Shown: positions 7,471-40,198 of the stretch, in pieces
Numbering within the stretch: the stretch's first letter is position 1
How the letters are laid out: the number at the start of each line of letters is the position of its first letter
DNA from: Eubacteriales bacterium
Lineage (GTDB): Bacteria > Bacillota > Clostridia > Oscillospirales > SIG627
Direction: 5' to 3'
Assembly: GCA_045531285.1 (NCBI GenBank)
Contig: JAZSDT010000083.1
Coordinates: forward strand, 1-60,841
DNA: 60,841 nt
The notes under the pieces: generated by a model
The model's input: only the letters and a program-made list of their open reading frames with translations
What the model was told of the DNA's origin: nothing
Databases searched by the model: none
Translations under genes and position numbers: made by a program

Positions 7471-7503
7471 AGCGTATTCCCTTCAAAACATCCACCAAAG
7501 ATA

Positions 7504-11646: not shown

Positions 11647-11730
11647 AGCAATAGCCCCCATTTCGGCTCTATTATAGCAAACAATACGGAATTTTGCAAC
11701 ATCTTTTTATACTCGACTGTATGTTTTTAA

Positions 11731-11757
11731 ACAAAGTCGGCACTTTTGCATATTATA
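11731..11757 (+). promoter_or_regulatory. Sigma-K-like (late mother-cell) promoter candidate
   Basis: AC (11731-11732), 16-nt spacer, CATATTATA (11749-11757) fits the AC-N16/17-CATAnnnTA sigma-K pattern. Lies 35 nt upstream of the ATG at 11792. Confidence 0.35.
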
Positions 11758-11791
11758 CATTGACCGAATAATTTTAACAGGAGGAACAAAA

Positions 11792-12604
11792 ATGATTCAA
11801 AACAGTTGTACAACTAGCGGTCAGGGGTGCTGCTGCAACGATGACGTTTGTTGCATCGACACCTGCCGCATATACGATACAAGCAGAACGCAAGACTGTA
11901 TTGAGGGCTTGAGAGTCGTTCTCACACCCGAGGGCACACAGGTTCTTCAGAACTGCAGAAGTCCCAGGGCAAAAGAGGTTCGTGTCATATGGACACAGTT
12001 GAATGCAGACGAGCTGCCCTTCAACAGCGGTTATTATCAGGTAAGCATCCGTTATTATTTTTACGTAGTTCTTACTTGCTGCGTTAACGGTGTAAGTCAG
12101 GATATTGAAGGCCTTGCCATAAGCGAGAAAACGGTCGTTCTCTACGGAGGTGAGGGCAACGTAAGTGTGTTCACCTCGGACACGGATTCGGATCCTTGCT
12201 TCACACCCAATCTCAGCAACGTTATTCCCGGAAACAACCGTCCTAAAGTTGTTCTTGAAGTAGCAACTCCCATTCCCCTTTCGGTAAGTATTGTGGAAAA
12301 CTGCAACGGTATTCCTCTGCCTCCCGAATATGACAATATTCCCCAGCAGATAATCAATCTTTTCGACGGAGGACTGGACCTCAATCCCTGTAATACCATT
12401 GCAGTATGTCTCACTCTCGGAATCTTTGCGCTGGTAAGAATCGAAAGACCTTCACAGCTCATAATCCCCGCGTGCGAATACTGTATTCCCGATGCAGATA
12501 AAACTCCCGTTTCGGTAACGGATCCCTGTTCGATGTTCTGCTCCACGCCCTTCCCAATTGAAGAGTTTTATCCCAGCACCTGCGCTCAAAACAGAAACTC
12601 TTAA
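11792..12604 (+). CDS. Cysteine-rich hypothetical protein (possible spore coat/exosporium component)
   Basis: 270-aa ORF with an AGGAGG RBS. N-terminus SGQGCCCNDDVCCIDTCRIYDTSRTQDC. About 20 Cys in total. No TM helix or signal peptide. I recognise no named family. Confidence 0.6.
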   Translation: MIQNSCTTSGQGCCCNDDVCCIDTCRIYDTSRTQDCIEGLRVVLTPEGTQVLQNCRSPRAKEVRVIWTQLNADELPFNSGYYQVSIRYYFYVVLTCCVNGVSQDIEGLAISEKTVVLYGGEGNVSVFTSDTDSDPCFTPNLSNVIPGNNRPKVVLEVATPIPLSVSIVENCNGIPLPPEYDNIPQQIINLFDGGLDLNPCNTIAVCLTLGIFALVRIERPSQLIIPACEYCIPDADKTPVSVTDPCSMFCSTPFPIEEFYPSTCAQNRNS

Positions 12605-13685: not shown

Positions 13686-14534
13686 TTATACGTTCTTTTT
13701 GAGGAAGTCGAATCCTGCACGAATAGCGGGCACACAGTCCTCCATACCTTCAAACTCTACGGAAACAAATCCGTCGTATCCTACTCTCTTGAGAGCCGCA
13801 ATACAGTTCTTAACAGGTACAACGCCGTGACCTACAATTGTTCCTCTTATATGGTTGCCGCCAAGAGTAGTGAAAAATCCTGAGGGACAATCAACGTTAC
13901 CTGCTTTGAAAAGGAAATCCTTTGCATGAACGTGGAACGTATAGGGTGCCGCAATTCCAACCGCAAGAACAGGGTCAGCGTCTGCGCAAAGGAAGTTTCC
14001 TATATCGCAAAGCCAACCGTAGTTATCACTTCCTACAGCGAGAATAAGTTCCTCGACTCTGTTGGGGCTCTGGAAAATGTAGCCGTGATTTTCCGTACAT
14101 GTCTTAATACCCTTTGTCTTTGCATACTCTGTTACCCTTCTGATACGGGGTGCCATGTCCTTGATAGCGTCCCTGTATGAATAAAGATGGTCCTTGGGAA
14201 GTGCATAGCAAACGTCATGTCTCATAACCGGTGCACCAAGCGCTGCGGCAATGTCAACACATTTGCAAACCTTTGCAATTTCCGCCTCAGCATCCTCTGC
14301 CAAGAAGTTTGCTCCAACGGTGTAAGCAGCTATCTCCAAGCCAATTTTTGCACAGTATTCCTTTATCTCTCCTGCAAGCTCGATAAGGTCAGTGCGTGTT
14401 GTGTAGCCCTCAAGTCCTACAAATTCGATACCGTCAAAGCCTATTTCCTTTGCGATATCGCACACCTTGAAGTAATCACAGCCTGTTTCTTTTATGTATT
14501 TTGAAAAGCTGTAGCTAGATACTCCTATTTTCAT
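13686..14534 (-). CDS. Sugar phosphate isomerase/epimerase (xylose-isomerase-like TIM barrel)
   Basis: 282 aa. Pattern IGFDGIEF...CTENH...HAKD...VSVEFEG is typical of the AP-endonuclease-2/XylA-like TIM-barrel family. Confidence 0.8.
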   Translation of the reverse strand: MKIGVSSYSFSKYIKETGCDYFKVCDIAKEIGFDGIEFVGLEGYTTRTDLIELAGEIKEYCAKIGLEIAAYTVGANFLAEDAEAEIAKVCKCVDIAAALGAPVMRHDVCYALPKDHLYSYRDAIKDMAPRIRRVTEYAKTKGIKTCTENHGYIFQSPNRVEELILAVGSDNYGWLCDIGNFLCADADPVLAVGIAAPYTFHVHAKDFLFKAGNVDCPSGFFTTLGGNHIRGTIVGHGVVPVKNCIAALKRVGYDGFVSVEFEGMEDCVPAIRAGFDFLKKNV

Positions 14535-24429: not shown

Positions 24430-24705
24430 ATCGAAATATTTAAAGGCTGTGACGAAGACGGTTTTGTCAGGCATTTTACAGAGAGTTGACGTTTGGTGCG
24501 AGTCAATATTTGACCTACAAGGTAACCTATCACTTCCGAGCCGGAATGCTGAACGTATTCAAGTAAGTGTTCCCGTGATTGCTGCGTAAATGCATAGGAA
24601 TTGTTTGATTCCAAGAGTGGCAGGTCTCCTGCAATTTGAGTGGTACCGCGGATGAGTTAATTTCACCCGTCTCAAAGAAAAAGCTTTGAGACGGGTTTAT
24701 TTTTT
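24430..24705 (+). promoter_or_regulatory. T-box riboswitch leader 1, specifier read as AUC (Ile)
   Basis: Stem I with AGAGA bulge and GUUUGGUG distal loop. Specifier loop ...CCU AUC A|CUUC (24529-24531). T-box sequence UUGAGUGGUACCGCGG (about 24636-24651). Terminator CCCGTCTCAAAG/CTTTGAGACGGG (24666-24695) plus T-run. Confidence 0.85.
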
Positions 24706-24722: not shown

Positions 24723-26987
24723 ATGTCAACAACTTCAAAAACAAAACTTCTGGAGGTAGCGCGCCGAATTCGTGAAATGCGTGAAATCGAAGGAATAAGC
24801 ATTGAAGAAATGGCAGAAAAGACAGAAGTATCTGTCCAGGATTATCTCGAATACGAAGCAGGAAATGCGGATTTCCCCTTCTCCTTTATACACAAATGCT
24901 CACTTGTTTTCGATATTGAAATTACAGATATTCTCGAAGGTAAGAGTGCTAACCTCCGTTCCTATACCATCACACGTAAGGGCGAAGGACAGGACACGGC
25001 AAAGGAAAACGGCATACAGATTCAGAGTCTTGCTCCCAAGTTCAAGGATAAAATAGCTGAGCCGTATTGGGTAAAGTACGAATACGACTCCGAGCTCCAG
25101 GACAAGCCAATAAACGTTACGACACACTCGGGACAGGAATTTGACTACGTGGTGAGCGGACGCCTCAAGATCCAGGTAGGCGACAACATCGAATATCTCA
25201 GCGAAGGCGACAGCATTTACTACAACAGCTCGGAGCCTCACGGCATGATTGCGGTTGACGGTAAGGAGTGTCTCTTTGTCGCAGTAGTACTTCCCGGTGA
25301 AGCAACCGAGGAAACGACTGTCAGAAAGACAATTTCGGCATCGAGTGCAAAATCAGGTCTTGTCAGTGAAAAATTCATCAAATGCGTTGAGGACGAAAAC
25401 GGTTCTCTTGTTTCCATTGACTTTGAAAACGAGGATAAATTCAATTTCGGCTTTGACGTTGTTGATGCAATTGCCAAGAAGGATCCCGGCAAGCTGGCAA
25501 TGATACACATAGACAAAAACAAGGTTGAAAGAAAGTTCACCTTCAACGATATAAAGCGTCATTCAGCTCAGGCGGCAAACTACTTCAAGTCACTTGGCAT
25601 CAAGAAGGGTGACAGAGTAATGCTGGTGCTCAAGCGCCACTATCAGTTCTGGTTTGCCATTGTGGCTCTCCACAAGCTTGGTGCTGTAGCTATCCCTGCT
25701 ACGAATCTGCTTGTAGCTCACGACTTTGATTACCGCTTTAACGCGGCGGGAGTTTCCGCAATCGTCTGCAGCGCCGACGGTCAGATAGCAGAACAGGTAG
25801 ATATTGCTCAGGCGGCAAGCCCCACTCTCAAGACAAAGATACTCGTAGGCGGCAAGAGAGACGGCTGGCACGACTTTGACGAGGAATATTCACTCTTCTC
25901 AACTCACTACTACAGGACCGAAGAAACCGCTTGCGGAGACGATATGATGCTGATGTTCTTCACATCCGGTACAACGGGTTATCCCAAAATTGCGGCTCAT
26001 TCCTACAAATACGCGCTTGGTCACTATCCCACGGCAAAATACTGGCATATGGTAGAGCCTGACGGACTCCACTTTACCATTTCGGACACAGGCTGGGGCA
26101 AGGCTCTCTGGGGCAAGCTCTACGGCCAGTGGCTGTGTGAGGGTGCTGTATTTACATATGACTTCGACCGCTTTGATGCATCGGAGATACTTCCCATGTT
26201 TGCAAAGTACAACATCAAGACCTTCTGTGCTCCGCCCACTATGCTCCGTATGATGATAAAGGAGGACATCTCAAAGTACGACCTTTCATCCGTAAAGCAT
26301 ATGACAACTGCAGGCGAAGCGCTTAATCCCGAGGTTTACTATCAGTTTGAAAAGCTCACGGGACTTCAGATAATGGAGGGCTTTGGTCAGACAGAGCTTA
26401 CTCTCGCCATCGCAAACCTTGTAGGACGTGACCACAAGGTAGGCTCTATGGGACGTCCCGTACCCCTTTATGACGTTGAGATACTTGACTCCGACGGAAA
26501 GCCGGTGCCCAACGGTGAAAACGGAGAAATCTGTGTAAAGATAGGCGACAAGGTTCCTTGCGGTCTCTTCCTTGGTTACTACGGAAACGAGGAAAAGACA
26601 AAGGAGGTCATGCACGACGGTTACTATCATACAGGCGACGTTGCATGGCGCGACGAGGACGGCTTCTTCTGGTACGTTGGAAGAACGGATGACGTTATCA
26701 AATCATCCGGCTACCGTATCGGTCCATTCGAGATAGAAAGCGTAATTATGGAGCTTCCCTACGTTCTGGAGTGCGGTGTATCTGCCGCTCCCGACGAGGT
26801 AAGAGGACAGGTTGTTAAGGCCAGCATCGTGCTTGTCAAGGGCACCGAGCCAACCGAAGAGCTTAAAAAGGAAATTCAGGAGTACGTAAAGAAACACACT
26901 GCTCCCTACAAATATCCCCGTATAGTCGTATTTAAAGATGAGCTTCCCAAGACAATAAGCGGAAAAATTCAAAGAAATAAGCTATAA
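24723..26987 (+). CDS. Fusion protein: XRE-type HTH + cupin domain + AMP-forming medium/short-chain acyl-CoA synthetase
   Basis: 754 aa. N-terminal HTH REIEGISIEEMAEKTEVSVQDYLEYEAG. Cupin HSGQEFDYVVSGRLKIQVGD...GDSIYYNSSEPHGM. Ligase motifs FFTSGTTGYPK, YHTGD, GRTDDVIKSSGYRIGPFEIE, SGKIQR. Confidence 0.85.
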   Translation: MSTTSKTKLLEVARRIREMREIEGISIEEMAEKTEVSVQDYLEYEAGNADFPFSFIHKCSLVFDIEITDILEGKSANLRSYTITRKGEGQDTAKENGIQIQSLAPKFKDKIAEPYWVKYEYDSELQDKPINVTTHSGQEFDYVVSGRLKIQVGDNIEYLSEGDSIYYNSSEPHGMIAVDGKECLFVAVVLPGEATEETTVRKTISASSAKSGLVSEKFIKCVEDENGSLVSIDFENEDKFNFGFDVVDAIAKKDPGKLAMIHIDKNKVERKFTFNDIKRHSAQAANYFKSLGIKKGDRVMLVLKRHYQFWFAIVALHKLGAVAIPATNLLVAHDFDYRFNAAGVSAIVCSADGQIAEQVDIAQAASPTLKTKILVGGKRDGWHDFDEEYSLFSTHYYRTEETACGDDMMLMFFTSGTTGYPKIAAHSYKYALGHYPTAKYWHMVEPDGLHFTISDTGWGKALWGKLYGQWLCEGAVFTYDFDRFDASEILPMFAKYNIKTFCAPPTMLRMMIKEDISKYDLSSVKHMTTAGEALNPEVYYQFEKLTGLQIMEGFGQTELTLAIANLVGRDHKVGSMGRPVPLYDVEILDSDGKPVPNGENGEICVKIGDKVPCGLFLGYYGNEEKTKEVMHDGYYHTGDVAWRDEDGFFWYVGRTDDVIKSSGYRIGPFEIESVIMELPYVLECGVSAAPDEVRGQVVKASIVLVKGTEPTEELKKEIQEYVKKHTAPYKYPRIVVFKDELPKTISGKIQRNKL

Positions 26988-27001
26988 TTTGCAAAAAAAT
27001 A

Positions 27002-27030
27002 TTGACAAACCTCATCTGATATGATATACT
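27002..27030 (+). promoter_or_regulatory. Sigma-A promoter of T-box leader 2
   Basis: TTGACA (27002-27007), 17-nt spacer, TATACT (27025-27030). Confidence 0.7.
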
Positions 27031-27034
27031 TCTT

Positions 27035-27307
27035 ATATTCAAGGAAAGGCTTTGACGAAGAGTATACCAGCACATCTATGCTCAGAGAAACGGCGTTTGG
27101 TGTAAGCCGTAGATAGACGTTGGTGTTTGTAGCTTCCGAGCCGAGAGGAAGAAAACGTTTGCCAGTAGACCCTCTCCGTGATTGCTGCGTAAATGCATAG
27201 GAATTGATTGATTCCAAGAGAGGCGGTTAGTCCGCAACTTGAGTGGTACCGCGGGCGTTGTTATTATGCTCGTCTCAAGGATCATATCTTTGGGACGAGC
27301 TTTTATT
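27035..27307 (+). promoter_or_regulatory. T-box riboswitch leader 2, specifier read as GUA (Val)
   Basis: Stem I with CAGAGA bulge and GUUUGGUG distal loop. Specifier loop ...GUUU GUA G|CUUC (27129-27131). T-box CUUGAGUGGUACCGCGG. Terminator GCTCGTCTCAA../..TTGGGACGAGC (27268-27300) plus TTTTATT. Confidence 0.85.
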
Positions 27308-27333
27308 GTCCCGATACAAAACCGGAGGAAATA

Positions 27334-29616
27334 ATGCAACAGATTACAGGTCTTGATTTTAAAATCAAGGAAATGGCAGGGCGTATACGAGAGCTTCGTG
27401 AAATCGTAGGACTTACTACCGAAGAAATGTCAAAGAAAACGGACGTATCCGTACAGGAGTACATAAGCTGTGAAAAGGGAGAAAGCGACCTTACCTTCGC
27501 TTTTATCTACCGTTGCGCTCTTGCACTCAACGTTGACGTTACGGATATTATCGAAGGTCACAGCCCTAAGCTTAAAACCTATACCGTAACAAGAAACGGG
27601 CTTGGTCAGAAAATCGAGCAGGCTCACGGTATGACGTATTACAGTCTTGCTTCCGAGTTCAAAAACAGAATTGCGGAGCCTCTTTACGTACGTGCCGCAT
27701 ACAATGACGATAACAGCGATATTGAGCTTACCACACACGCCGGTCAGGAATGTGACATTATCATTGAAGGTCACCTCAAGGTACAGGTTGGTGAGCACAC
27801 CGAGGTTCTCGGCCCGGGTGACAGTATCTACTATAACAGCTCGGAACCTCACGGTATGATTGCCGTAAACGGTCACGACTGTCTTTTCTACGCAATAGTT
27901 CTTAATCCCACAGGTGAATCCATTCCCGAGCTCATCCCCCATCCCACTGTCACTACCGAAAGACAGCTTCCCCGTGACACAGAGGATAGAGTATACCGCA
28001 ATTTCATTGATACCGAAGAGGATGAAAACGGCACACCTACTTCCATAAAATTCAAGAATACCGAAAAATTCAACTTTGCATTCGACATTGTTGATGCCAT
28101 TGCCGACAAGTCGCCCGACAAACTGGCAATGCTTCACATAGATGTAAACAAGAACGAAAGACGCTTCACTTTCAAGGATATGAAGAAGATGTCTGCTCAG
28201 GCGGCAAACTACTTCAAGTCACTTGGTATCAAGAAGGGCGACAGAGTTATGCTCGTTCTCAAGCGTCACTATCAGTTCTGGATAGCAATGCTTGGTCTTC
28301 ACAAGCTGGGTGCTATTGCGGTGCTTGCGACAAATCAGCTTCAGGAGCATGATTTTGAATATCGCTTTAATGCCGCGGGAATTTCTGCAATCCTCTGCAC
28401 AGCAGACGGAGATACAGCGCATCAGGTTGAGCTGGCAATTGAAAACTCCCCCACAATGAAAACCAAGATAATAGTTGGAAAGGACCGTGAAGGATGGCGC
28501 AACTTTGACGAGGAGCGTTCACTCTTCTCCACACATTTCAACAGAACAGAGGATACTCCCTGCGGAGACGACCTGATGTTGATGTTCTTCACGTCGGGAA
28601 CAACGGGTTATCCCAAGATTGCGGCACACTCCTGCAAGTATGCACTCGGTCATTTCCATACGGCGAAATACTGGCACACAGTTGACCCCGACGGACTTCA
28701 CTTTACCATTTCCGACACGGGATGGGCTAAGTCCATGTGGGGCAAGTTCTACGGACAGTGGGTATGCGAGGCGGCAACCTTCGTTTATGACTTTGACCGC
28801 TTTGACGCTGCCGATATTCTGCCAATGTTTGCAAAATATCAGATAACAACCTTCTGTGCTCCTCCCACAATGCTTCGTATGATGATAAAAGAGGACATTT
28901 CAAAATACGACCTCTCTTCCGTTAAGCATATGACAACAGCAGGTGAAGCACTGAACCCCGAAGTATATAACCAATTTGAAAGGCTGACAGGACTTCAGAT
29001 ACTTGAAGGCTTCGGTCAGACAGAAAGCACTATGATAATAGGCAACCTTGTAGGAACGTCACACAAGGTCGGCTCTATGGGTAAGCCTGCTCCCATTTAC
29101 GACGTGGAGCTTCTTGATGCAGACGGTAATCCCGTCAAGGACGGTGAAAACGGAGAAATCTGCGTAAACGTTAAGAACGGCGCTCCTTGCGGTCTGTTCA
29201 CGGGTTATTATCTCAACGAGGAAAAAACACGCGAGGTATGGCACGACGGATATTACCACACAGGTGACGTTGCATGGCGTGATGAGGACGGCTTCTACTG
29301 GTACGTCAGCCGTGTTGACGACGTTATCAAGTCATCGGGCTACCGTATCGGTCCTTTCGAAATAGAAAGCGTAATAATGGAGCTTCCCTACGTTCTGGAG
29401 TGCGGTGTATCTGCGGCTCCCGACGAGGTAAGAGGACAGGTAGTCAAGGCGGGCATCGTGCTTGTTAGGGGAACCGAGCCTACTGAAGAGCTTAAAAAGG
29501 AGATACAGAACTACGTTAAGAGCAGAACTGCTCCCTACAAGTATCCCAGAATCGTAGTGTTCAAGGATTCTCTTCCCAAGACTGTCAGCGGAAAGATCCA
29601 GAGGAACAAATTATAA
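27334..29616 (+). CDS. Fusion protein paralog: XRE-type HTH + cupin + AMP-forming acyl-CoA synthetase
   Basis: 760 aa from the ATG at 27334 (GGAGG RBS; the ORF-track start at 27208 lies inside the riboswitch). Same architecture and motifs as 24723..26987. The ligase part is highly similar. Confidence 0.85.
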   Translation: MQQITGLDFKIKEMAGRIRELREIVGLTTEEMSKKTDVSVQEYISCEKGESDLTFAFIYRCALALNVDVTDIIEGHSPKLKTYTVTRNGLGQKIEQAHGMTYYSLASEFKNRIAEPLYVRAAYNDDNSDIELTTHAGQECDIIIEGHLKVQVGEHTEVLGPGDSIYYNSSEPHGMIAVNGHDCLFYAIVLNPTGESIPELIPHPTVTTERQLPRDTEDRVYRNFIDTEEDENGTPTSIKFKNTEKFNFAFDIVDAIADKSPDKLAMLHIDVNKNERRFTFKDMKKMSAQAANYFKSLGIKKGDRVMLVLKRHYQFWIAMLGLHKLGAIAVLATNQLQEHDFEYRFNAAGISAILCTADGDTAHQVELAIENSPTMKTKIIVGKDREGWRNFDEERSLFSTHFNRTEDTPCGDDLMLMFFTSGTTGYPKIAAHSCKYALGHFHTAKYWHTVDPDGLHFTISDTGWAKSMWGKFYGQWVCEAATFVYDFDRFDAADILPMFAKYQITTFCAPPTMLRMMIKEDISKYDLSSVKHMTTAGEALNPEVYNQFERLTGLQILEGFGQTESTMIIGNLVGTSHKVGSMGKPAPIYDVELLDADGNPVKDGENGEICVNVKNGAPCGLFTGYYLNEEKTREVWHDGYYHTGDVAWRDEDGFYWYVSRVDDVIKSSGYRIGPFEIESVIMELPYVLECGVSAAPDEVRGQVVKAGIVLVRGTEPTEELKKEIQNYVKSRTAPYKYPRIVVFKDSLPKTVSGKIQRNKL

Positions 29617-30278
29617 TGAAATATAAAAGAATAACGCTTCTTTCAGGTCATTACGGAAGCGGAAAGACAAATATAGCGGTCAACATGGCATTTGAGCTGA
29701 AGCAACAGGTTGAAAGCGTTGTGGTTGCCGATATGGATATAGTCAATCCCTATTTTCGTACAAAGGACAGTCAAAAGGAGTTTGATGAGGCAGGAATAAA
29801 GCTTATTGCATCCGCCTTTGCAGGCTCTAACGTAGACCTGCCCTCTCTTCCCCAAGAGATGTACTCACTGACAGATGACCGCACAAGCCACTGCATACTT
29901 GATATAGGTGGTGATGAACGCGGAGCGTTGGTGCTTGGAAGATATGCGCCTATGATAAAGGAAGAAAACGATTACGAAATGCTTTTCGTTTTCAATGCCT
30001 GCCGTCCCTTGACACCGGATGCCGACTCGGCACTGGAGGTTATGAGAGAAATTGAATGGGCAGGAAAGATACCCTTCACAGGTATCATAAACAACTCAAA
30101 CATCGGAGAGGAAACAACTCCCGAGACAGTTTTGTCATCAATGGAAAAAGCAAACCAGCTGAGTCAAAAAGCCGGTATTCCATTGGTTATGACCTCGGTT
30201 CATTGGAAGATATTTCCCTCCCTTGAAAATAAAATACCAAATCTATTCCCATTAAAACTTCAAACAAAAATCATGTAA
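29616..30278 (+). CDS. P-loop NTPase (SIMIBI class; CooC/MinD/G3E-like ATP/GTP-binding protein)
   Basis: Walker A LLSGHYGSGKTN, Walker-B-like ILDIGGD. 220 aa. Start overlaps the ligase stop (TAATG). Confidence 0.6.
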   Translation: MKYKRITLLSGHYGSGKTNIAVNMAFELKQQVESVVVADMDIVNPYFRTKDSQKEFDEAGIKLIASAFAGSNVDLPSLPQEMYSLTDDRTSHCILDIGGDERGALVLGRYAPMIKEENDYEMLFVFNACRPLTPDADSALEVMREIEWAGKIPFTGIINNSNIGEETTPETVLSSMEKANQLSQKAGIPLVMTSVHWKIFPSLENKIPNLFPLKLQTKIM

Positions 30279-30290
30279 GGAGTGTAAAAA

Positions 30291-30497
30291 ATGCCTAAGC
30301 TTACTTTTAAAACAGACAACTGTAAGGGCTGTGGACTTTGCGTAGATGCTTGTCCCAAGGGCGTTCTTGCAATTGCCAAGGAAAAAATCAACAAAAAAGG
30401 TCATCACCCTGTTGAAGCGGTGAAAGAGGACGCTTGTATCGGTTGTACCTTCTGTGCTACCATGTGTCCCGACTGTATAATCAAGATTGAGAAATAG
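30291..30497 (+). CDS. 2-oxoacid:ferredoxin oxidoreductase delta subunit (2x[4Fe-4S] ferredoxin)
   Basis: CKGCGLCVDACP and CIGCTFCATMCP cluster motifs. 68 aa. Confidence 0.85.
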   Translation: MPKLTFKTDNCKGCGLCVDACPKGVLAIAKEKINKKGHHPVEAVKEDACIGCTFCATMCPDCIIKIEK

Positions 30498-30512
30498 AAA
30501 GGTCGTGAAATA

Positions 30513-31580
30513 ATGGCAGATAAAGTATTGATGAAAGGTAACGAAGCCATTGCCGAAGCCGCAATCGTTGCAGGCTGCCGCCACTACTTCGGTTACCCTA
30601 TTACTCCCCAAACTGAAATTGCCGCTTACATGGCTAAGAGAATGCCTAAAATCGGCGGTTGCTTCCTTCAGGCTGAAAGCGAAATTGCCGCTATCAACAT
30701 GGTATACGGCGTTGCTTCCTGCGGTAAGCGTGTTATGACATCATCCTCAAGCCCCGGAATCTCACTTAAGGGCGAAGGACTTTCCTACCTTGCAGGTGCG
30801 GACCTTCCCTCCCTTGTTGTAAACGTACAGAGAGGCGGCCCCGGTCTGGGCGGTATTCAGCCCTCGCAGTCAGACTACTTCCAGGCTACAAAGGGCGGAG
30901 CACACGGTGATTTCCACATGATAGTTCTTGCTCCCGCTTCCGTTCAGGAAATGGCTGACCTCACAGTTCACGGCTTTGACCTTGCAGACAAGTACCGTAT
31001 GACTTCCATGATACTTGCCGACGGTACAATGGGTCAGATGATGGAGCCTGTTTCTCTTGACCTTGACGTTAAGCCCATGCCCGAAAAGCCTTGGGCTACA
31101 GTGGGAACAAAGCTCGAAAGATTCCACAATATCACAAACTCACTTTCTCTTGTTCCCGAAGAGCTTGAACAGCTCAACTTCAAGAGATACGAGCGTTATG
31201 CTGAAATAGAAAAGAATGAAGTTATGTACGAAGAGTATATGATGGAGGATGCAGAGATCTGTATCGCCGCATTCGGCATTGCTTCACGTGTTGCCAAGAA
31301 CGCTATCGTTGAGGCTCGTGCTCAGGGTATCAAGGTAGGTCTTATACGTCCTATCACCCTTTGGCCCTTCCCCAAGGCTCCCTTCCTCAAGGCGACCGAA
31401 AAGGTACATTCATTTATTTCTGTTGAGCTTTCTATGGGTCAGATGATAGAGGACGTACGTCTTGCTACAGAGTGCCGCCGTCCCGTGACACTTGTAAACC
31501 GTGCAGGCGGTATGATCCCCTCACCCGAACAGATCCTCGAAGCAATTAAAACTGCTCACAAAAACGGAGGTGCAAAATAA
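30513..31580 (+). CDS. 2-oxoacid:ferredoxin oxidoreductase alpha subunit (VorB-like, ketoisovalerate-type)
   Basis: KVLMKGNEAIAEAAIVAGCRHYFGYPITPQTEI is the N-terminal signature of the POR/VOR/KOR alpha family. 355 aa. Confidence 0.85.
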   Translation: MADKVLMKGNEAIAEAAIVAGCRHYFGYPITPQTEIAAYMAKRMPKIGGCFLQAESEIAAINMVYGVASCGKRVMTSSSSPGISLKGEGLSYLAGADLPSLVVNVQRGGPGLGGIQPSQSDYFQATKGGAHGDFHMIVLAPASVQEMADLTVHGFDLADKYRMTSMILADGTMGQMMEPVSLDLDVKPMPEKPWATVGTKLERFHNITNSLSLVPEELEQLNFKRYERYAEIEKNEVMYEEYMMEDAEICIAAFGIASRVAKNAIVEARAQGIKVGLIRPITLWPFPKAPFLKATEKVHSFISVELSMGQMIEDVRLATECRRPVTLVNRAGGMIPSPEQILEAIKTAHKNGGAK

Positions 31581-32347
31581 TGGTAGTATTTGACAAACCC
31601 CATGCACTTGCCGACCTTCCCATGCACTACTGCCCCGGCTGTACACACGGTATTATTCACCGTCTTGTTGCCGAGTGTCTTGATGAACTTGGAATTGAAG
31701 GAAGAACCATCGGTATCGCACCCGTTGGTTGCTCGGTTATGGCATATAATTATTTCAACTGCGATATGATTGAAGCGGCTCACGGACGTGCTCCTGCCAT
31801 TGCTACAGGTGTTAAGCGTGCTGACCCCGAAAATCACATAGTATTTACATATCAGGGCGACGGTGACCTTGCCTCTATTGGTATGGCAGAAACCGTACAC
31901 GCAGCAGCGCGTAACGAGAACATCACCGTTATCTTTGTAAACAATGCAATCTACGGTATGACTGGCGGTCAGATGGCTCCTACCTCACTTCCCGGTCAGG
32001 TTACTCAGACCTCTCCCTACGGACGTGACACCAACCACTGCGGATTCCCAATCAAGGTATGCGAAATGCTCTCTGAGCTTGACGGACCTGAATATCTGGA
32101 AAGAGTTGCCGTGAACAACGTGAAGAATGTTAAGGCTGCTAAGAAGGCTATTAAGAAGGCGTTTGAAAACCAGATAAACAATAAGGGCTTCTCACTCATC
32201 GAGGTTATTTCAAGCTGTCCTACAAACTGGGGTATGACACCTCAAAAGGCACTTGAATGGGTTGCAGATAAAATGATTCCCTACTATCCTCTCGGTGTAT
32301 ATAAGGATAGAACAGCGGGCATTGTAAAGGGGGATAAAAATGACTAA
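31580..32347 (+). CDS. 2-oxoacid:ferredoxin oxidoreductase beta subunit (TPP-binding)
   Basis: YCPGCTHG, GDGD...NNAIYGMTGGQ TPP/Mg motif. Start overlaps the alpha stop. Confidence 0.85.
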   Translation: MVVFDKPHALADLPMHYCPGCTHGIIHRLVAECLDELGIEGRTIGIAPVGCSVMAYNYFNCDMIEAAHGRAPAIATGVKRADPENHIVFTYQGDGDLASIGMAETVHAAARNENITVIFVNNAIYGMTGGQMAPTSLPGQVTQTSPYGRDTNHCGFPIKVCEMLSELDGPEYLERVAVNNVKNVKAAKKAIKKAFENQINNKGFSLIEVISSCPTNWGMTPQKALEWVADKMIPYYPLGVYKDRTAGIVKGDKND

Positions 32348-32870
32348 TCAGTACGTTTTTGCAGGATTTGGCGGTCAGGGTATCCTTTTCGCAGGTAAGC
32401 TCCTTGCATACAAGGGTCTGACAGAGGACAAGCAGGTTTCATGGCTTCCCTCCTACGGTCCCGAAATGAGAGGCGGTACGGCAAGCTGTTCCGTTATCAT
32501 CAGCGACACACCTGTAGGTTCTCCCATTGTTTCCAATCCCGACATACTCATCGCTATGAACCTTCCTTCTCTTGACAAGTACGAGAATCTTGTAAAGGCA
32601 GGCGGTATGATATTCTACGATTCTTCTCTCATTGAAAGAGAAGTTAAAAGAGATGACGTAAAGGCGTTCCCCATTCCCGCAACAAAGCTTGCAGACGAGA
32701 ACGGAACTCCCACACTTGCAAACATGATAATCATGGGTAAGGTGCTCAAGGAGACAGGCGACTTCACAGACGAAGGCGTTCTTGCAGCTCTCAAGAAGGT
32801 AATTTCCGCTAAGCGTGCGGATATGCTTGACGTAAACCTTAACGCTATGAAACTTGGACGCGATTATTAA
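32340..32870 (+). CDS. 2-oxoacid:ferredoxin oxidoreductase gamma subunit
   Basis: [17 protein letters not shown]...[11 protein letters not shown] is typical of gamma subunits. 8-nt overlap with beta. Confidence 0.85.
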
Positions 32871-32886
32871 TTGGAGGCGAATTTAA

Positions 32887-33951
32887 ATGGAAATTTCAAT
32901 CACTCGCGCAAAGGAGCTCAAGGCTAAGCCTGACAGTTCCACACTTGGCTTCGGTAAAATATTCACCGACCATATGTTCATAATGGACTATTCGCAGGAG
33001 AAAGGCTGGCACGATGCAAGAATCGTTCCCTTCGGCCCCTTCCCCATTCATCCCGCATCAACCGTTCTTCACTACGGCTCGGAAATCTTTGAAGGACTCA
33101 AGGCATACAGAATCGCCGACGGCTCGGTACAGCTCTTCAGACCTATGGAGAACATCCGCCGTCTTAACAGCTCGGCTGAGCGTCTGTGTCTCCCCGAGAT
33201 TCCCGAGGACCTTGCTCTTGAGGTACTCACAAAGTTCGTTGAATTTGAAAAGGACTGGACACCTGCTGCAGAGGGTACTTCTCTCTACATCCGTCCCTTC
33301 CTCTTCGGTAACGACGAGACACTTGGTGTACACGCAGTACACAATGCAACCTTTATGATAATCCTCTCTCCTGTAGGAAGCTACTATAAGGAAGGTATTA
33401 ACCCTGTTAAGATCATGATTGAAGCTGATGACGTAAGAGCTGTAAGAGGCGGTACAGGTTACACCAAGTGCGGCGGTAACTATGCGGCAAGTAACAGAGC
33501 AGGTCAGAAGGCTGAAGCTCAGGGATACGCTCAGGTACTCTGGCTTGACGGTGTTGAAAGAAAGTATATTGAAGAAGTTGGCGCCATGAACGTTATGTTC
33601 AAAATCAACGGCGAGATCGTTACTCCCATGCTTTCAGGCTCTATCCTTCCCGGTATCACAAGAAAGTCTTGCATTGAAGTTCTCAAGTCCGAGGGCTACA
33701 AGGTAAGCGAGAGACTTCTCAGCGTTGATGAGCTTGCAGAGGCTCTTGAAAACGGAACTCTTGAAGAGGCTTGGGGAACAGGTACAGCAGCAGTTGTATC
33801 GCCCATTGGCGAGCTTGCTTACAAGGGCAAGAAGTTCATCATCAACGAAGGTAAGATCGGCGAGGTCACTCAGCATCTTTACGATACTCTCACAGGCATC
33901 CAGTGGGGTAAGATCGAAGACAAGTTCAACTGGACCTACAAGCTTAATTAA
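32887..33951 (+). CDS. ilvE: Branched-chain amino acid aminotransferase (fold type IV)
   Basis: 354 aa. FGKIFTDHMF, LHYGSEIFEGLKAYR, GGTGYTKCGGNYAAS, ILPGITR and GTAAVVSPI motifs of IlvE type II. Confidence 0.9.
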   Translation: MEISITRAKELKAKPDSSTLGFGKIFTDHMFIMDYSQEKGWHDARIVPFGPFPIHPASTVLHYGSEIFEGLKAYRIADGSVQLFRPMENIRRLNSSAERLCLPEIPEDLALEVLTKFVEFEKDWTPAAEGTSLYIRPFLFGNDETLGVHAVHNATFMIILSPVGSYYKEGINPVKIMIEADDVRAVRGGTGYTKCGGNYAASNRAGQKAEAQGYAQVLWLDGVERKYIEEVGAMNVMFKINGEIVTPMLSGSILPGITRKSCIEVLKSEGYKVSERLLSVDELAEALENGTLEEAWGTGTAAVVSPIGELAYKGKKFIINEGKIGEVTQHLYDTLTGIQWGKIEDKFNWTYKLN

Positions 33952-34038: not shown

Positions 34039-35148
34039 TTATAAAAATATACCTTTTTCTTTACAATCGTTAAAAATGGAAAAGCGATTTATTTCATTTG
34101 TCAACAGGCTATCATATTTCTTTATATAGGCTGAAAGCGCCTCTGTATCTATTTGACGAGGTCTTTGTCCTACACGTTTCAAAAAATTCCCGTAAAAGAT
34201 TTTATCAAGAGTGTCCTCGTCCAACGCCATTCCTTGCACATCCATTCCTGCCATTTTGAAGGAATCATCTGTCAAAAGGAATCGATAAACACAAGGTATC
34301 GAATAACCTCCTCCTCTTGTCGAATAATCGGAACCAAACATTATTCTGTCAGAATATTTGAGGAAAAACTCTCTCCAATCCGTTATGTTTTCACTCATAT
34401 AGTGAAAATTACTCGGGCCTGGTGTAATATCTATGCACACGTTAGGATAATCGTCAAGAAGCTTTTCAAGGCGTTCGCGCTGCGTTGTCATATAGAACAT
34501 ATGTGCAAACGTTACCTTAAGTCTCGGATATCGTCTTAATATTTCATAAACCTCACCGTAAACCTCTTCTCTGTCGGGATTCTCGGAATTTGCAAATTTC
34601 ACGTCATTCCAATGCTCAATCGGGTCATTTACGTGCCACAGAATATGTATTTGCTCTTCTTCGATCCTTTTAAACAGCGGTGCAAATCCCTTGTCAGTAA
34701 AAATAGCTTTCAACTCCATTTTTGCCTTTGGATGAGTTTCAAGCATTTTTACTCCGTCAAAGCCGATTTTCATCAATTCGTCAAGCTGTGTATCAGGCTC
34801 AAATCCTTTTTTAAACGGAAAGCTCACAGGTCTGTCGGGATATACAAGCCCACCATGTGCAAAAACCTTTTTGTTTTCCTCCTTCAACAGTGCAGCCATA
34901 ATATTTTGTGCAGCATCTCTGCCTATATACGGAATACACGCAATGTTGACATACTCATAGTTGCGGGAATCAATAAAAGCGTTTACCGATTCTTTATAGT
35001 TATGGGATACGGGTGCATCCTTCCAACCGAATCGTTCTATTTCCTTGAATGGAGTTATAAACTGTCGGTAGTCCTCGTGATTCAAATCCGTCGAATCCAT
35101 CCAATTTGAAATATGAATATGTGAATCTATGACCTTAATTGTCTTCAT
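34039..35148 (-). CDS. Amidohydrolase-family (metal-dependent TIM-barrel hydrolase) protein
   Basis: VIDSHIHISNW N-terminal HxH, WHVNDP, and FGSDYS near the C-terminus. 369 aa. Confidence 0.65.
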   Translation of the reverse strand: MKTIKVIDSHIHISNWMDSTDLNHEDYRQFITPFKEIERFGWKDAPVSHNYKESVNAFIDSRNYEYVNIACIPYIGRDAAQNIMAALLKEENKKVFAHGGLVYPDRPVSFPFKKGFEPDTQLDELMKIGFDGVKMLETHPKAKMELKAIFTDKGFAPLFKRIEEEQIHILWHVNDPIEHWNDVKFANSENPDREEVYGEVYEILRRYPRLKVTFAHMFYMTTQRERLEKLLDDYPNVCIDITPGPSNFHYMSENITDWREFFLKYSDRIMFGSDYSTRGGGYSIPCVYRFLLTDDSFKMAGMDVQGMALDEDTLDKIFYGNFLKRVGQRPRQIDTEALSAYIKKYDSLLTNEINRFSIFNDCKEKGIFL

Positions 35149-36008: not shown

Positions 36009-36037
36009 TTGACAAATCAATTTCATCGTGGTATAAT
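36009..36037 (+). promoter_or_regulatory. Sigma-A promoter of T-box leader 3
   Basis: TTGACA (36009-36014), 17-nt spacer, TATAAT (36032-36037). Confidence 0.75.
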
Positions 36038-36043: not shown

Positions 36044-36324
36044 TCATCAAAAATAGAACGAAATGCATTGAAGGAATTATCGCTTTTCCCTATTCCGTCA
36101 AAGAGAGCCGAGTTTGGTGTGAGTCGGTACGGTAAGCTAAAGTGAGTCTCGTTCCGGAGCAGGGTCGCCCAACGTGCTATGCACTGCGTAAGCGATCACG
36201 GTTTGTCCCGTTACCTTGACAGAAAGCTTGATTGAGCTTTACAGAGTGACTGCATAAGCAGTAATTCGGGGTGGTACCGCGAAGTATTTTCGTCCCCTTA
36301 GCCGAAAGGCTGAGGGGTTTTTTG
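36044..36324 (+). promoter_or_regulatory. T-box riboswitch leader 3, specifier read as CUC (Leu)
   Basis: Stem I with AAGAGAG bulge and GUUUGGUG distal loop. Specifier loop ...GAGU CUC G|UUCC (36148-36150). T-box AUUCGGGGUGGUACCGCGAAG. Terminator CCCCTTAGCC-GAAA-GGCTGAGGGG (36294-36317) plus TTTTTT. Confidence 0.85.
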
Positions 36325-36354: not shown

Positions 36355-37743
36355 ATGAAAAAAATCCAAATCACAGACATCACACTTAAAAAACTGGCGC
36401 AAGAGCGTAGCGTTAACCTTCTTTTCCGTGACAAGACCGCTATCGCCGCATGTGCTGACAGGCTTGGAGTTGATGCTATTGAACTTGCACCCATAAAGAA
36501 CGTGCGTGAGGACACTATCATTTATAAGACAATATCCCAAAATATCACCAACTGTACCGTAGCTATCCCCGTAGGATTTACTGCTCAGGACGTTGCGACA
36601 GCATGGGAATGCGTAAAGGACGCCATTCACCCCAGACTTCAAATAGAGCTTCCCATATCCACTGTTCAAATGGAATATACCTATCATCTTAAGGCTGACA
36701 AAATGATTGCCAAGATAGGTGAGCTGGTAGAGGAAGCAGTAAAATACTGCAATGACGTTGAATTCGTTGCTCTTGACGCTACAAGAGCGGACACAGACTT
36801 CCTTGTTGCCGCAGTAAAAGAAGCAGAAACAAAGGGCGCAAATATCATAACGGTTTGCGATGATGCGGGAGTTTCTCTTCCGGAAGAAATTGCAGCACTT
36901 GTAAAGCTTGTAAAAGATGCTGTTGATATCTACGTATACGCTCAGGTATCCGACAAGCTCAGTATGGCTGTTTCCTCTGCAGTATCCGCAATCAACGCAG
37001 GTGCAGAAGGTCTCAAGTGTGCTATGGCAGGCAATGAAGCTCTTTTGGTAGGTGCTTTCTCTGACACTGTAAGAGCAAGAGGAGATGCTATCGACGTTTC
37101 TACGTCTCTTAAGGACACCAAAATTCACGCAAGCATCGATGACCTGCTTACTTCTATAAAGCACGAAGCTTATACCTCGGAAGAACAGGTAAGCGAAAAG
37201 AAAAACATTCTTCTCGATAAGGACAGCACCATATCACAGGTATCTCAGGCGGCTCAGGTATTGGGCTATGACCTTTCGGACAGCGACTGCGGAAACGTGC
37301 ACAAGGCACTTCTTCAGGTATGCGAAAAGAAGGGCTCTGTAGGATCAAAGGAGTTTGAAGCACTTATTGCAAGCTCTGCAATGCAGGCTCCCTCCACATA
37401 TCACCTTGAGGGCTACACTACAAATTCTTCAAATCTTACACCCTCTATGTCTCAAGTAACCCTCAGATGCGGTGACGAGATACTTTCAGGCGTAAGCACA
37501 GGTGACGGTCCCATCGATTCAGCCTTCCGCGCTATCGAGCAGAGTATAGGTTATCACTACGAGCTTGACGACTTCCAGGTACAGGCGGTTACAGAGGGCA
37601 AGGAGGCTCTCGGCTCTGCACTGGTAAGACTCCGTAACAACGGCAAGCTCTATTCAGGTAACGGCATCTCCACAGATATTGTTGCCGCAAGTATAAGAGC
37701 ATACATCAACGCACTTAACAAGATCGTATTCGAGGAGGAATAA
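36355..37743 (+). CDS. 2-isopropylmalate/citramalate-synthase-like protein with degenerate active site but intact LeuA-type C-terminal regulatory domain
   Basis: Collinear with LeuA over the whole length, but DTTLRDGEQ is DITLKKLAQ and the HxH metal motif (H-C-H-D-D) is AQVSD. The C-terminal STGDGPIDSAFRAIEQSI...ALVRLRNNGKLYSGNGISTDIVAASIRAYINALNK is well conserved. ATG at 36355 lies downstream of the riboswitch terminator. Confidence 0.75.
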   Translation: MKKIQITDITLKKLAQERSVNLLFRDKTAIAACADRLGVDAIELAPIKNVREDTIIYKTISQNITNCTVAIPVGFTAQDVATAWECVKDAIHPRLQIELPISTVQMEYTYHLKADKMIAKIGELVEEAVKYCNDVEFVALDATRADTDFLVAAVKEAETKGANIITVCDDAGVSLPEEIAALVKLVKDAVDIYVYAQVSDKLSMAVSSAVSAINAGAEGLKCAMAGNEALLVGAFSDTVRARGDAIDVSTSLKDTKIHASIDDLLTSIKHEAYTSEEQVSEKKNILLDKDSTISQVSQAAQVLGYDLSDSDCGNVHKALLQVCEKKGSVGSKEFEALIASSAMQAPSTYHLEGYTTNSSNLTPSMSQVTLRCGDEILSGVSTGDGPIDSAFRAIEQSIGYHYELDDFQVQAVTEGKEALGSALVRLRNNGKLYSGNGISTDIVAASIRAYINALNKIVFEEE

Positions 37744-37744: not shown

Positions 37745-40198
37745 ATGAAGCTGGTATTTTCCACCGAAAACGTAAGCAGAGCATCCTTTATTGACCTTTG
37801 CCGCTACGCTTACGATTACGGTTATTCGGGATTTGAGATATACGATGCCATAAAGGAAAGAAAACAGCATTATGACAGCATTCTCAGAAGCGGAAACACT
37901 TCGGATGCCAAACGAAAGCTGTTAAACCGTAATCTCACAGTTCCCGCTCTCACTTTCCCCTCCCCTATAGACAGTAGCGAAGTATCCTCCGAGGATATAA
38001 CAAAATATATCGACATGGCTGCAACGGCAGGTGTGGAAAACGTTATTGTATGCGTAAAAGAAGATATTTCTCACGATACCCTTTCTGCCAAGCTTAGCGA
38101 TGCACTCAAGGCTGCTGCAAAATCCGATATACAGATTTTGTTTGAAACGTGGGGCATTCTTGCTGACACGGAAAAGGTACTTGAGGTAATCAATTTCCTG
38201 TCATCCGCCTCGGTAGGCGTAGCATGGAACGTACGTGAAACCTTTTTCAAAGCAAGCGAAAGTGCCGAAACGACCATAAAAAATCTTGGCGCTTATATAA
38301 AATACACCCGTTTGGGCGATATGAAGGACAATAAGACGGTTCTCATCGGAGAAGGTGAGCTTCCTGTTGGCAATTTCATAAACGCGCTGTCATCACTGAA
38401 CTTTGACGGATGTATCTGCGTTGCATGGAACGAGGAAATAAACGATGCTGACATCGTATTAACTCATTTTTCAAACTATATTGCAAATCTCAACCGTAAG
38501 AAATTAAAAGCCGACAGCTCTTATTACAACAGAGCAAAAACAGGTACTTTCCCTTGGAAGAAATATGATATTCTCGATTATACCTTCTCGGACGTACTTG
38601 ATGCAATGGTAAAGAATTACCCCGACCAGTATGCCTTCAAGTATACGACTCTTGATTATACGAGAACCTACACCGAATTCCGCAGAGACGTTGACGAGTG
38701 TGCGGCGGCACTGATATCACTGGGCGTAAAGGCAGGCGATCACGTTGCTATTTGGGCGACAAACGTTCCTGCATGGTATATCACCTTCTGGGCAACAACA
38801 AAGATCGGCGCAGTACTTGTTACTGTCAACACAGCGTACAAAATACACGAAATAGAGTATCTGCTCAAGCAGTCTGACACTCATACTCTTGTAATGATAG
38901 AGGACTGCAAGGACATAAACTACAAGGAAATAATTGAGGAGCTCTGTCCCGAGCTTCAGCACCTTGAACCGGGTCAGCCTATTTATTCAAAGAGTCTTCC
39001 CTTCCTCCGAAACGTTGTTACCGTAGGCTTTTCAATGAAGGGCTGTCTCACTTGGGAGGAAATGCTCAAGCGTTCTGAGCTTGTTCCAAAAGAAGAGGTA
39101 CGCAGACGTGCATCTCTGGTAAATCCCGACGACGTATGCAATATGCAGTACACCTCGGGTACTACAGGCTTCCCCAAGGGAGTTATGCTTACCCATCGCA
39201 ATATCGTAAACAACGGTAAGACGATCGGAGACAGAATGGACTTGTCCACTGCCGACAGAATGATGATTCAAGTACCTATGTTCCATTGCTTCGGAATGGT
39301 GCTTTCTATGACATCTATGATGACACACGGCGGTACTCTTTGTCCTATGCCTTATTTCTCCCCCAAATCATCTCTTGCTTGTATAAACGATGAGCACATC
39401 ACCTGCTTCAACGGTGTGCCTACAATGTTTATCGCGCTGTTCAATCATTCGGATTTTGCAAAAACCGACTTCTCTTATATGAGAACGGGCATTATGGCAG
39501 GTGCCAACTGTCCTGCAGATCTTATGCGCCGTGCGGCAGACGAAATGAATATGCGTGAAATAATATCCGTTTACGGTCAGACCGAGGCATCTCCGGGATG
39601 TACGATGGGCGAAGTAAACGAGGATATCGACCACAGAGTTGAGACAGTAGGAAGCGCCTTCCCCGGAGTTGAGTGTAAAATTATTGACCCTGAGACAGGC
39701 GACGAGCTTCCCGACGGTGAATCCGGTGAGTTTGTGGCACGCGGCTTTAACATTATGAAGGGTTACTATAAGATGCCCGAGGCTACTGCACAGACTATTG
39801 ACGCAGACGGATGGCTTCATTCAGGTGACATTTGCTGCCGTACGCCCGACGGCTACTACAAGGTAACAGGACGTCTTAAGGATATGATAATCCGAGGCGG
39901 TGAAAACCTTTATCCCCGTGAAATTGAGGAGTTCTATCTTACCAATCCCAAGGTACGTGACGTACAGGTGGTAGGTGTTCCCGACGAAAGATACGGTGAA
40001 GAATGCTGTGCGTGGATAATTCTTCACAAGGGCGAGACTGCCGACGAAAACGAAATGAAGGAATACGGAAACGCTTCTATCGCACGTCACAAGGTTCCCC
40101 GTTACTTCCTGTTCGTAGATGAGTTCCCCATGAATGCGGCAGGAAAAATTCTTAAATATAAAATGAGAGATATTTCAAAAGAAAAATTAGGTCTTTAA
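37745..40198 (+). CDS. Fusion protein: xylose-isomerase-like TIM-barrel domain + AMP-forming acyl-CoA synthetase (FadD/YngI-like)
   Basis: 817 aa. The first ~260 aa have the TIM-barrel pattern (GFEIY...ILFETWG...VAWNVRE...CVAWNEE). The remainder carries YTSGTTGFPKGVMLTHRN, GQTE, HSGD, GRLKDMIIRGGENLYPREIE, AGKILK. Starts 1 nt after the upstream stop. Confidence 0.8.
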   Translation: MKLVFSTENVSRASFIDLCRYAYDYGYSGFEIYDAIKERKQHYDSILRSGNTSDAKRKLLNRNLTVPALTFPSPIDSSEVSSEDITKYIDMAATAGVENVIVCVKEDISHDTLSAKLSDALKAAAKSDIQILFETWGILADTEKVLEVINFLSSASVGVAWNVRETFFKASESAETTIKNLGAYIKYTRLGDMKDNKTVLIGEGELPVGNFINALSSLNFDGCICVAWNEEINDADIVLTHFSNYIANLNRKKLKADSSYYNRAKTGTFPWKKYDILDYTFSDVLDAMVKNYPDQYAFKYTTLDYTRTYTEFRRDVDECAAALISLGVKAGDHVAIWATNVPAWYITFWATTKIGAVLVTVNTAYKIHEIEYLLKQSDTHTLVMIEDCKDINYKEIIEELCPELQHLEPGQPIYSKSLPFLRNVVTVGFSMKGCLTWEEMLKRSELVPKEEVRRRASLVNPDDVCNMQYTSGTTGFPKGVMLTHRNIVNNGKTIGDRMDLSTADRMMIQVPMFHCFGMVLSMTSMMTHGGTLCPMPYFSPKSSLACINDEHITCFNGVPTMFIALFNHSDFAKTDFSYMRTGIMAGANCPADLMRRAADEMNMREIISVYGQTEASPGCTMGEVNEDIDHRVETVGSAFPGVECKIIDPETGDELPDGESGEFVARGFNIMKGYYKMPEATAQTIDADGWLHSGDICCRTPDGYYKVTGRLKDMIIRGGENLYPREIEEFYLTNPKVRDVQVVGVPDERYGEECCAWIILHKGETADENEMKEYGNASIARHKVPRYFLFVDEFPMNAAGKILKYKMRDISKEKLGL

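Follow-up and report, generated by a model that had tools for sequence, protein, structure and literature searches.

A 60,841-nt stretch of DNA from an Eubacteriales bacterium (assembly GCA_045531285.1, contig JAZSDT010000083.1), hereafter referred to as the window, carries a gene at 37745–40198 (+) in which a TIM barrel of the xylose-isomerase type is fused to an acyl-coenzyme A (acyl-CoA) ligase. The gene is one uninterrupted open reading frame (ORF) from ATG 37745 to TAA 40198 and encodes 817 aa. It is preceded by a degenerate paralog of LeuA, and this pair forms a predicted operon behind a leucine T-box (Table 1). The locus was analyzed computationally, together with its relatives in other genomes, to follow up a preliminary description of the window.

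The fusion gene and its predicted leucine T-box operon

The 817-aa protein has a three-part layout of barrel, linker, and complete AMP-forming ligase, with no frameshift or stop in the reading frame. Pfam matches were obtained for AP_endonuc_2 (PF01261, xylose-isomerase-like TIM barrel; residues 20–230, E = 1.3e-13, 51.7 bits with a cut-off of 31.1), AMP-binding (PF00501; residues 288–675, E = 5e-95, 318.9 bits with a cut-off of 29.9), and AMP-binding_C (PF13193; residues 726–801, E = 1e-15, 58.6 bits with a cut-off of 24.5). The linker motif YYNR..TG.F.WKKY...D.TF..VLD is kept in all fusions. Over 120 protein clusters at ≥83% identity are full length and bear only the annotation "AMP-binding protein", and at least 598 species genomes contain the fusion; it is therefore not an artefact of a frameshift or of assembly, which the preliminary description had considered, and its account of a single ORF with an N-terminal TIM barrel and a complete ligase was borne out. 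A full-text literature search found no paper that describes the fusion or names a gene activating isovalerate for the route discussed below, in agreement with the earlier remark that no described role was known for this combination of domains.

The ligase half appears intact by its core motifs. Its place in the ANL superfamily follows from both Pfam domains scoring above their cut-offs and from the presence of all of the A3, A5, A7, A8, and A10 motifs, with the P-loop YTSGTTGFPKG at residues 469–479, YGQTE at 610–614, SGD at 693–695, GRLKDMIIRGGEN at 709–721, and AGKILK, which contains the A10 lysine, at 799–804. Among 45 homologs, T470-G479, Y610-G611-T613-E614, G694-D695, R710...G718-G719-E720-N721, and G800-K801 were invariant, Q612 and L803 were conserved at 90% or more, and S693 lay outside the conserved columns. 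The best NCBIfam model was PRK12583 (NF009233, the YngI-type "fatty acid CoA ligase family"), which aligned residues 276–816 with model positions 15–555 of 558; it is the nearest model rather than a family assignment, as the score of 670.1 bits missed the curated cut-off of 832.

The operon begins with a predicted promoter and a leader that confirmed the leucine T-box of the preliminary description. Its specifier loop reads GAGU-CUC-G, with a purine after the CUC codon. The predicted leader terminator ends 31 nt 5′ of ATG 36355 and, as read from the sequence, would compete with the T-box antiterminator. The Rfam score, the Leu codon, and the terminator/antiterminator arrangement all agree with a T-box of the leucine class. 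The LeuA-like gene starts at ATG 36355, which sits after the terminator and a AAAGGGAAA ribosome-binding site, and not at GTG 36271 of the mechanical ORF list, which lies inside the T-box leader. The stop codon of the LeuA-like gene and the ATG of the fusion gene are separated by 1 nt, with no terminator between the genes, and the gene downstream of the fusion is convergent.

The LeuA-like protein matched HMGL-like (93 bits) and LeuA_dimer (106 bits) in Pfam, and every isopropylmalate synthase NCBIfam model was far below its cut-off. Throughout its family the DRE-TIM catalytic motifs are absent (KKLAQ stands in place of RDGxQ, and YAQVSD in place of HxHND), and the best-conserved part is the C-terminal leucine-binding regulatory domain. 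Judging from these motifs, the LeuA-like partner is catalytically dead.

Table 1. Features of the fusion operon and of the branched-chain cluster upstream of it in the window.
Feature	Position	Strand	Basis or remark
Ile (AUC) T-box	24440–24677	+	before first helix-turn-helix (HTH)-cupin::acyl-CoA ligase
Two HTH-cupin::acyl-CoA ligases, ParA-like gene, VOR alpha/beta/gamma, IlvE	24723–33951	+	
VOR subunits	30513–32870	+	alpha subunit matches VorB model, 536 bits (cut-off 399)
IlvE, branched-chain aminotransferase	32887–33951	+	482 bits (cut-off 307)
Sigma-70-type promoter (predicted): TTGACA, 17-nt spacer, TATAAT, TG 5′ of −10 box	36009–36037	+	read from sequence
T-box leader, specifier CUC (Leu)	36059–36300	+	Rfam RF00230, 102.8 bits (gathering score 93)
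Intrinsic terminator of leader (predicted): CCCCTTAGCC-GAAA-GGCTGAGGGG, then TTTTTT	36294–36323	+	overlaps 3′ end of Rfam match
Degenerate LeuA paralog, 462 aa, first operon gene; LeuA_dimer leucine-binding domain retained	36355–37743	+	Pfam and motif loss
Ribosome-binding site GAGGAGG of fusion gene, inside end of LeuA-like gene	37732–37738	+	read from sequence
TIM barrel domain, residues 1–250, altered metal site	37745–38494	+	PF01261, AlphaFold2 (AF2) model, Foldseek, ligand columns
Linker and ligase N-terminal extension, residues 251–287	38495–38605	+	pLDDT below 50 at residues 251–266; conserved motif
AMP-forming acyl-CoA ligase, residues 288–817, core motifs intact	38606–40198	+	PF00501, PF13193, PRK12583

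Relatives, gene context, and leucine supply

Relatives were sought with one genome per species, which gave the at least 598 matching genomes mentioned above, and loci were counted among the 80 best. All 80 encode the fusion, mostly at its whole length, with a few ended by contig ends, and the carriers are all uncultured Clostridia, many from ruminant and other animal guts. The LeuA-like gene lies immediately 5′ of the fusion in 75 of the 80 loci, and the remaining five are cut by contig ends. In 60/72 loci a T-box core was located no more than 320 nt 5′ of the partner gene, with the specifier, as taken from the alignment, being CUC and rarely CUG. One clade (L067–L073 and L082) combines a dead LeuA and an intact barrel with no T-box in the 320 nt 5′ of the pair, and is therefore expected to have another mode of regulation; in this clade ilvE, the ParA-like gene, and VOR lie directly 3′ of the pair.

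In the window, VOR and IlvE would carry isovaleryl-CoA on to leucine; the alpha subunit of VOR and IlvE exceed the curated cut-offs of their models (Table 1). The VOR-ilvE cluster that the preliminary description had placed upstream of the fusion was confirmed. Two arrangements were found directly 3′ of the pair in other genomes. One consists of IlvE (355 aa), the ParA-like gene, VOR alpha/beta/gamma, and an HTH-cupin ligase, the genes that the window has a few kilobases 5′ of the pair; the other is a 268-aa amidohydrolase-like gene (HCHIYP...; e.g., L036:8463–9269), which lacks an NCBIfam name and comes after the pair in many relatives. Near the fusion operon of the window, a 369-aa Amidohydro_2 gene occupies the opposite strand (34039–35148).

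Gene content was compared in an even set of 151 genomes from the same order. The fusion was present in 57 of them, and 33 more had only a free-standing relative of the barrel. The dead LeuA was found in 34 genomes, always adjoining the fusion, and 30 of these had no other LeuA-family match. A second Aconitase_C (PF00694) match of LeuD size, a candidate LeuD, occurred in 1/34 genomes with the pair and in 72/117 other genomes, a contrast to be read as a pattern among related genomes. The scarcity of LeuA and LeuD in the pair genomes fits a route that replaces the isopropylmalate pathway. Canonical LeuA, LeuC, and LeuD were also sought in the source assembly, which is 86% complete, and none was found. 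Its three HMGL-like genes are the dead LeuA, a homocitrate/Re-citrate-synthase-like gene adjoining aconitase and isocitrate dehydrogenase genes, and an oxaloacetate-decarboxylase-like gene, and its single aconitase-family gene is of the tricarboxylic acid cycle type.

The barrel, its metal site, and the order of events

The AF2 model of the barrel alone was of high confidence (pLDDT 94.6, pTM 0.91). Foldseek with this model returned UlaE (3cqj), ketose 3-epimerases, AsbF (3dx5), YcjR, and MJ1311 (3wqo) with probability 1.0, template modelling (TM) scores of 0.75–0.82 (0.81 for UlaE), and 10–20% identity. A profile search gave MJ1311 (2.6e-13) and AsbF (2e-11), and a plain sequence search against the PDB gave only MJ1311 (E = 0.004), which is too weak to name a subfamily. 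No curated NCBIfam model matched the barrel. The PF01261 score and the (beta/alpha)8-like model place it in the xylose-isomerase-like fold; the profile and fold searches support the superfamily and no specific enzyme family. When 1.8 billion representative proteins were searched with the barrel alone, 438 matches were obtained, and those inspected were largely pieces of the same fusion.

The preliminary description had asked whether the metal ligands of the barrel were conserved. In an alignment with the free-standing barrel of the window, distant fusions, and free relatives, the four ligand columns read Glu, Asp, His, and Glu (E-D-H-E) in the references, and E134, N162, R189, and A227 in the fusion. 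Three of the four ligands are thus replaced (D to N162, H to R189, and E to A227) with E134 alone retained, and the barrel departs from the Glu-Asp-His-Glu tetrad of the UlaE, DPEase, AsbF, IolE, and Hyi enzymes. R164 and Y187 stand in for His at two more positions. About 60 loci of the clade show almost no variation at N162, R164, and R189, and the full tetrad stands in the same columns of the window's free-standing barrel, free relatives, and fusions lacking the dead LeuA (type B).

The barrel has diverged further than the ligase: identity across the 80 loci was 25–69% for the barrel versus 72–93% for the ligase, and the ratio of nonsynonymous to synonymous substitution rates (dN/dS) was 0.09 versus 0.03 (30 pairs with dS <1.5 in the ligand-less clade), both far below 1. 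Since three ligands are replaced and purifying selection nevertheless persists, we read the barrel of this lineage as a non-catalytic module, neither isomerase nor epimerase, in which the former active-site pocket has turned into a cationic binding site. It is a domain kept by selection rather than a relic, and it is not a canonical member of its enzyme family. A canonical metal-dependent second catalytic step by the barrel of this protein is unlikely because of the three lost ligands.

The order of events was examined in a maximum-likelihood tree of the ligase domains. Two barrel-less orthologs fell outside, all fusions formed one clade (100/100) with type B basal, and the partner-containing fusions formed one nested clade (100/99). 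The barrels of the ENR type, including that of the window protein, made up one clade (100/99) among lineages that still have EDHE, and other partner-containing lineages show the different losses ENHV and KDHE. Type B accounts for 23 of the 57 fusion-bearing genomes. In the eight type-B loci inspected, the ligase is 65–69% and the barrel 26–31% identical to the window protein. E-D-H-E was kept in all eight, and a CUC T-box lies directly 5′ of the fusion in four of them; those of L102, L103, and L097 exceed the gathering score, and that of L100 scores 87.6 bits. The likely sequence of events, as suggested by the tree and the ligand columns, is that an intact-barrel fusion under leucine control arose first, that the dead LeuA was then recruited, and that the metal site was lost several times independently.

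As the basal fusions have a barrel and no partner, docking the dead LeuA was not the original role of the barrel. The earlier suggestion of a second catalytic step or a docking module is therefore narrowed on both sides: ordinary metal chemistry is improbable here, and docking of this partner could only be a later role. In the basal lineages the barrel once had a metal-dependent role connected with the ligase and may retain it today.

Two loci bear on the history of the association. L096 (G067:C39:12000-22900), at 5066–9552 (−), has a Trp (UGG) T-box, a TrpB-like gene of 457 aa, a barrel-less ligase ortholog (596 aa, 55% identical), and a free barrel (287 aa, E-D-H-E intact); ligase and barrel are associated here too, each with a gene of its own, in reversed order, and with tryptophan as the controlling amino acid. 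L100 (G091:C35:5000-22000), at 5914–12252 (−), has two LeuA-family genes of canonical length (525 and 520 aa) just 5′ of a type-B fusion, whose own T-box lies in the gap after them. From its gene order, L100 may be an intermediate between a normal leuA and the pair with the dead LeuA.

Proposed role and alternative explanations

We propose, with a probability of roughly 0.55, that the 817-aa protein provides the acid-activating step of an operon that responds to leucine starvation and that its barrel is here a non-catalytic module. Uncharged tRNA-Leu would cause the CUC T-box to read through the terminator, so that both genes would be made together. Using ATP, the C-terminal ANL ligase would form the CoA thioester of a short branched acid related to leucine, most probably isovalerate. 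VOR would then carboxylate isovaleryl-CoA reductively to 2-oxoisocaproate, and IlvE would transaminate this to leucine. The barrel, with its cationic pocket, would have a regulatory or organising effect on the ligase, in which the dead LeuA might take part as a leucine sensor. We infer the substrate and the direction of flux from context, and the cooperation of barrel and dead LeuA is conjecture. Leucine formation from isovalerate in rumen and gut anaerobes has been known since the 1960s, and the fusion provides a specific and easily testable candidate gene for the activation step.

Isovalerate activation had been suggested in the preliminary description from the T-box, the partner gene, and the VOR-ilvE cluster. 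It is well supported by context because the pairing of the two genes is conserved, IlvE and VOR are syntenic with the pair, and LeuA and LeuD are scarce in the same genomes; seen in relatives, this makes the case much stronger. The T-box specifier, the synteny, and the gene-content patterns together point to isovalerate as the most likely substrate.

Several observations weigh against this proposal. The score against PRK12583 was below its curated cut-off, and the choice of isovalerate comes from regulation and synteny. In the window, some 2.4 kb lie between the end of the VOR-IlvE cluster and the fusion operon, which is transcribed on its own. The related genomes are not independent samples, which makes the gene-content contrast a pattern and not a statistic, and with 86% completeness of a metagenome-assembled genome (MAG), the absence of leuA, leuC, and leuD from that one genome is no proof. 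The AF2 model of the whole fusion had a poor ligase half (pTM 0.51) with pLDDT <50 at residues 251–266 and gave no reliable domain interface (Foldseek with this model matched only ligases), and any contact of the barrel with the dead LeuA is hypothetical. Finally, the basal fusions keep E-D-H-E under the same leucine control, and the model leaves the catalytic or metal-dependent role of their barrels unexplained.

A more elaborate arrangement is conceivable, and we offer it tentatively. The ligase may stand under two pseudoenzyme modules, the arginine-lined barrel pocket (N162/R164/R189) and the dead LeuA, which would form an allosteric assembly that shuts off isovalerate activation in response to leucine (or to 2-oxoisocaproate or acyl-CoA). 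The feedback logic of LeuA would then have moved to an unrelated entry enzyme after loss of the isopropylmalate pathway.

The ligase could instead serve to spare leucine: its isovaleryl-CoA would be used mainly to prime iso-odd branched-chain fatty acids, so that scarce leucine need not be broken down through IlvE and VOR for membrane lipids. MbcS of S. aureus activates branched short acids to prime fatty acids (PMC10026030), and the fusion would act in a similar way. IlvE and VOR are reversible and would serve the catabolic direction too, a T-box that responds to leucine shortage is as consistent with sparing as with synthesis, and, with isovaleryl-CoA as a common intermediate, both uses can coexist. 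However, the pair genomes almost never have LeuA or LeuD and need a source of leucine, the highly conserved leucine-binding domain of the partner fits feedback on a biosynthetic entry step, and the parallel Ile and Val T-box ligases beside VOR-IlvE resemble a three-way system of amino acid supply. Sparing as the main function is accordingly unlikely, though it keeps some weight.

It is less probable again that the barrel of the window protein is still an enzyme, performing a metal-independent, Arg-based second step or making the acid for the ligase. The latter has a precedent in petrobactin synthesis, where AsbF makes 3,4-dihydroxybenzoate for the ligase AsbC. The strong purifying selection on the barrel, the conservation of the replacement residues N162, R164, and R189 themselves, and the full E-D-H-E of basal fusions and free-standing relatives favor such an activity, as does L096, whose adjoining ligase and free barrel genes suggest that two activities were linked before or apart from the fusion. 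In contrast, no member of the barrel family is known to function once its metal site is lost. At least three patterns of ligand loss in the partner-containing clade (ENR, ENHV, and KDHE) look like the release of a catalytic constraint rather than a single new chemistry. The barrel evolves at about three times the rate of the ligase, and the route from isovalerate to leucine requires no extra step.

The substrate may also be another acid, such as 2-hydroxyisocaproate, 4-methylvalerate, 3-methylcrotonate, or a generic medium-chain acid, with an indirect link to leucine. PRK12583, whose cut-off was missed, carries no more specific name than fatty acid CoA ligase family, and the solved structures closest to the ligase are feruloyl-CoA and malonyl-CoA synthetases. 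The barrel-less ortholog in the Trp T-box operon of L096 shows, moreover, that the subfamily is not tied to leucine alone. These points are outweighed by the CUC T-box conserved in both fusion types, the synteny with VOR-IlvE, and the service of the other two branched acids by T-box ligases of their own in the same window, and we regard a different acid as quite improbable. Mis-assembly, a frameshift, or a decaying gene has a negligible chance of explaining the fusion, given a continuous ORF conserved across hundreds of independent assemblies and dN/dS far below 1 in both halves.

If the proposed activation of isovalerate is true, isovalerate-dependent leucine synthesis could be read from metagenomes, and the finding would bear on the dependence of fibre degraders on branched-chain volatile fatty acids. 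The fusion occurs in roughly one-third of the sampled genomes of the order, and the species genomes that carry it include many herbivore-gut MAGs. The ordered series, from an intact barrel in the fusion through the dead LeuA to repeated loss of the metal site under selection, represents a natural case of the conversion of an enzyme domain.

Relation to known systems and distant relatives

The ligase half aligns end to end with YngI/PRK12583 and ACSF2-type ANL enzymes and has all of the ANL motifs. In B. subtilis, yngI lies within the leucine/isovalerate catabolic yng cluster, an analogy that makes a branched short acid plausible as the substrate class of the ligase. The fusion differs in its N-terminal barrel, its Leu T-box, its sub-threshold score, and its anabolic VOR-IlvE context, as opposed to a catabolic liu/yng one.

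MbcS of S. aureus and MacS-type synthetases activate exogenous branched short acids with ATP, giving CoA primers that are shared with branched-chain amino acid metabolism (PMC10026030, PMC11167679). The predicted activity of the fusion would be of the same kind; these synthetases, however, belong to another ANL subfamily, lack the barrel and the T-box, and act in fatty-acid priming. A Leu T-box has been documented for Geobacter leuA (PMC2700814), and the fusion operon resembles this and the B. subtilis ilv-leu operon in placing an entry step of leucine supply and a leucine-binding LeuA domain behind a tRNA-Leu T-box. Those systems have a LeuA that leucine inhibits by feedback; here, in contrast, the catalytic barrel of LeuA is dead and the switched enzyme is a CoA ligase.

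The fused barrel shares its fold with UlaE, the ketose 3-epimerases, AsbF, YcjR, and MJ1311, from which it is set apart by its low identity, its replaced ligands, and the attached ligase. QuiC1 (5hmq), another Foldseek match, sets a precedent by coupling a barrel of this family to a second domain, which in its case is HPPD-like. Catalysis in QuiC1 lies in the barrel, whereas in the fusion the barrel has a degenerate site and the attached domain acts as the enzyme. New in this analysis are the type A/B split, the polarity of ligand loss on the tree, the dN/dS contrast, the conserved Arg replacements, and the anticorrelation with LeuA/LeuD in the even sample.

The window contains a free-standing barrel at 13686–14534 (−), which the preliminary description had assigned to the same family. 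It does belong to the same Pfam family, but it is of a different subfamily: it is 19% identical to the fused barrel, its metal site is complete with four ligands, and its neighbors on either side are AraC-type regulators. The low identity and the AraC context ruled it out as a paralog, and it is uninformative about the fused barrel.

Among the free barrel relatives in other genomes, those of L089–L093 and L095 (about 268 aa, 23–27% identical, E-D-H-E intact) adjoin a guaB-like IMP dehydrogenase gene (about 490–510 aa), a neighborhood seen in 6/8 loci that gave no lead on the ancestral function of the barrel. One distant fusion, the 776-aa representative protein P0251, has an apparently degenerate ligase half, in which the P-loop YTSGTTGFPKG is changed to a VPTYRFDGDVCA-type sequence; its barrel reads LLISDG, WDVRG, and YVALSD.

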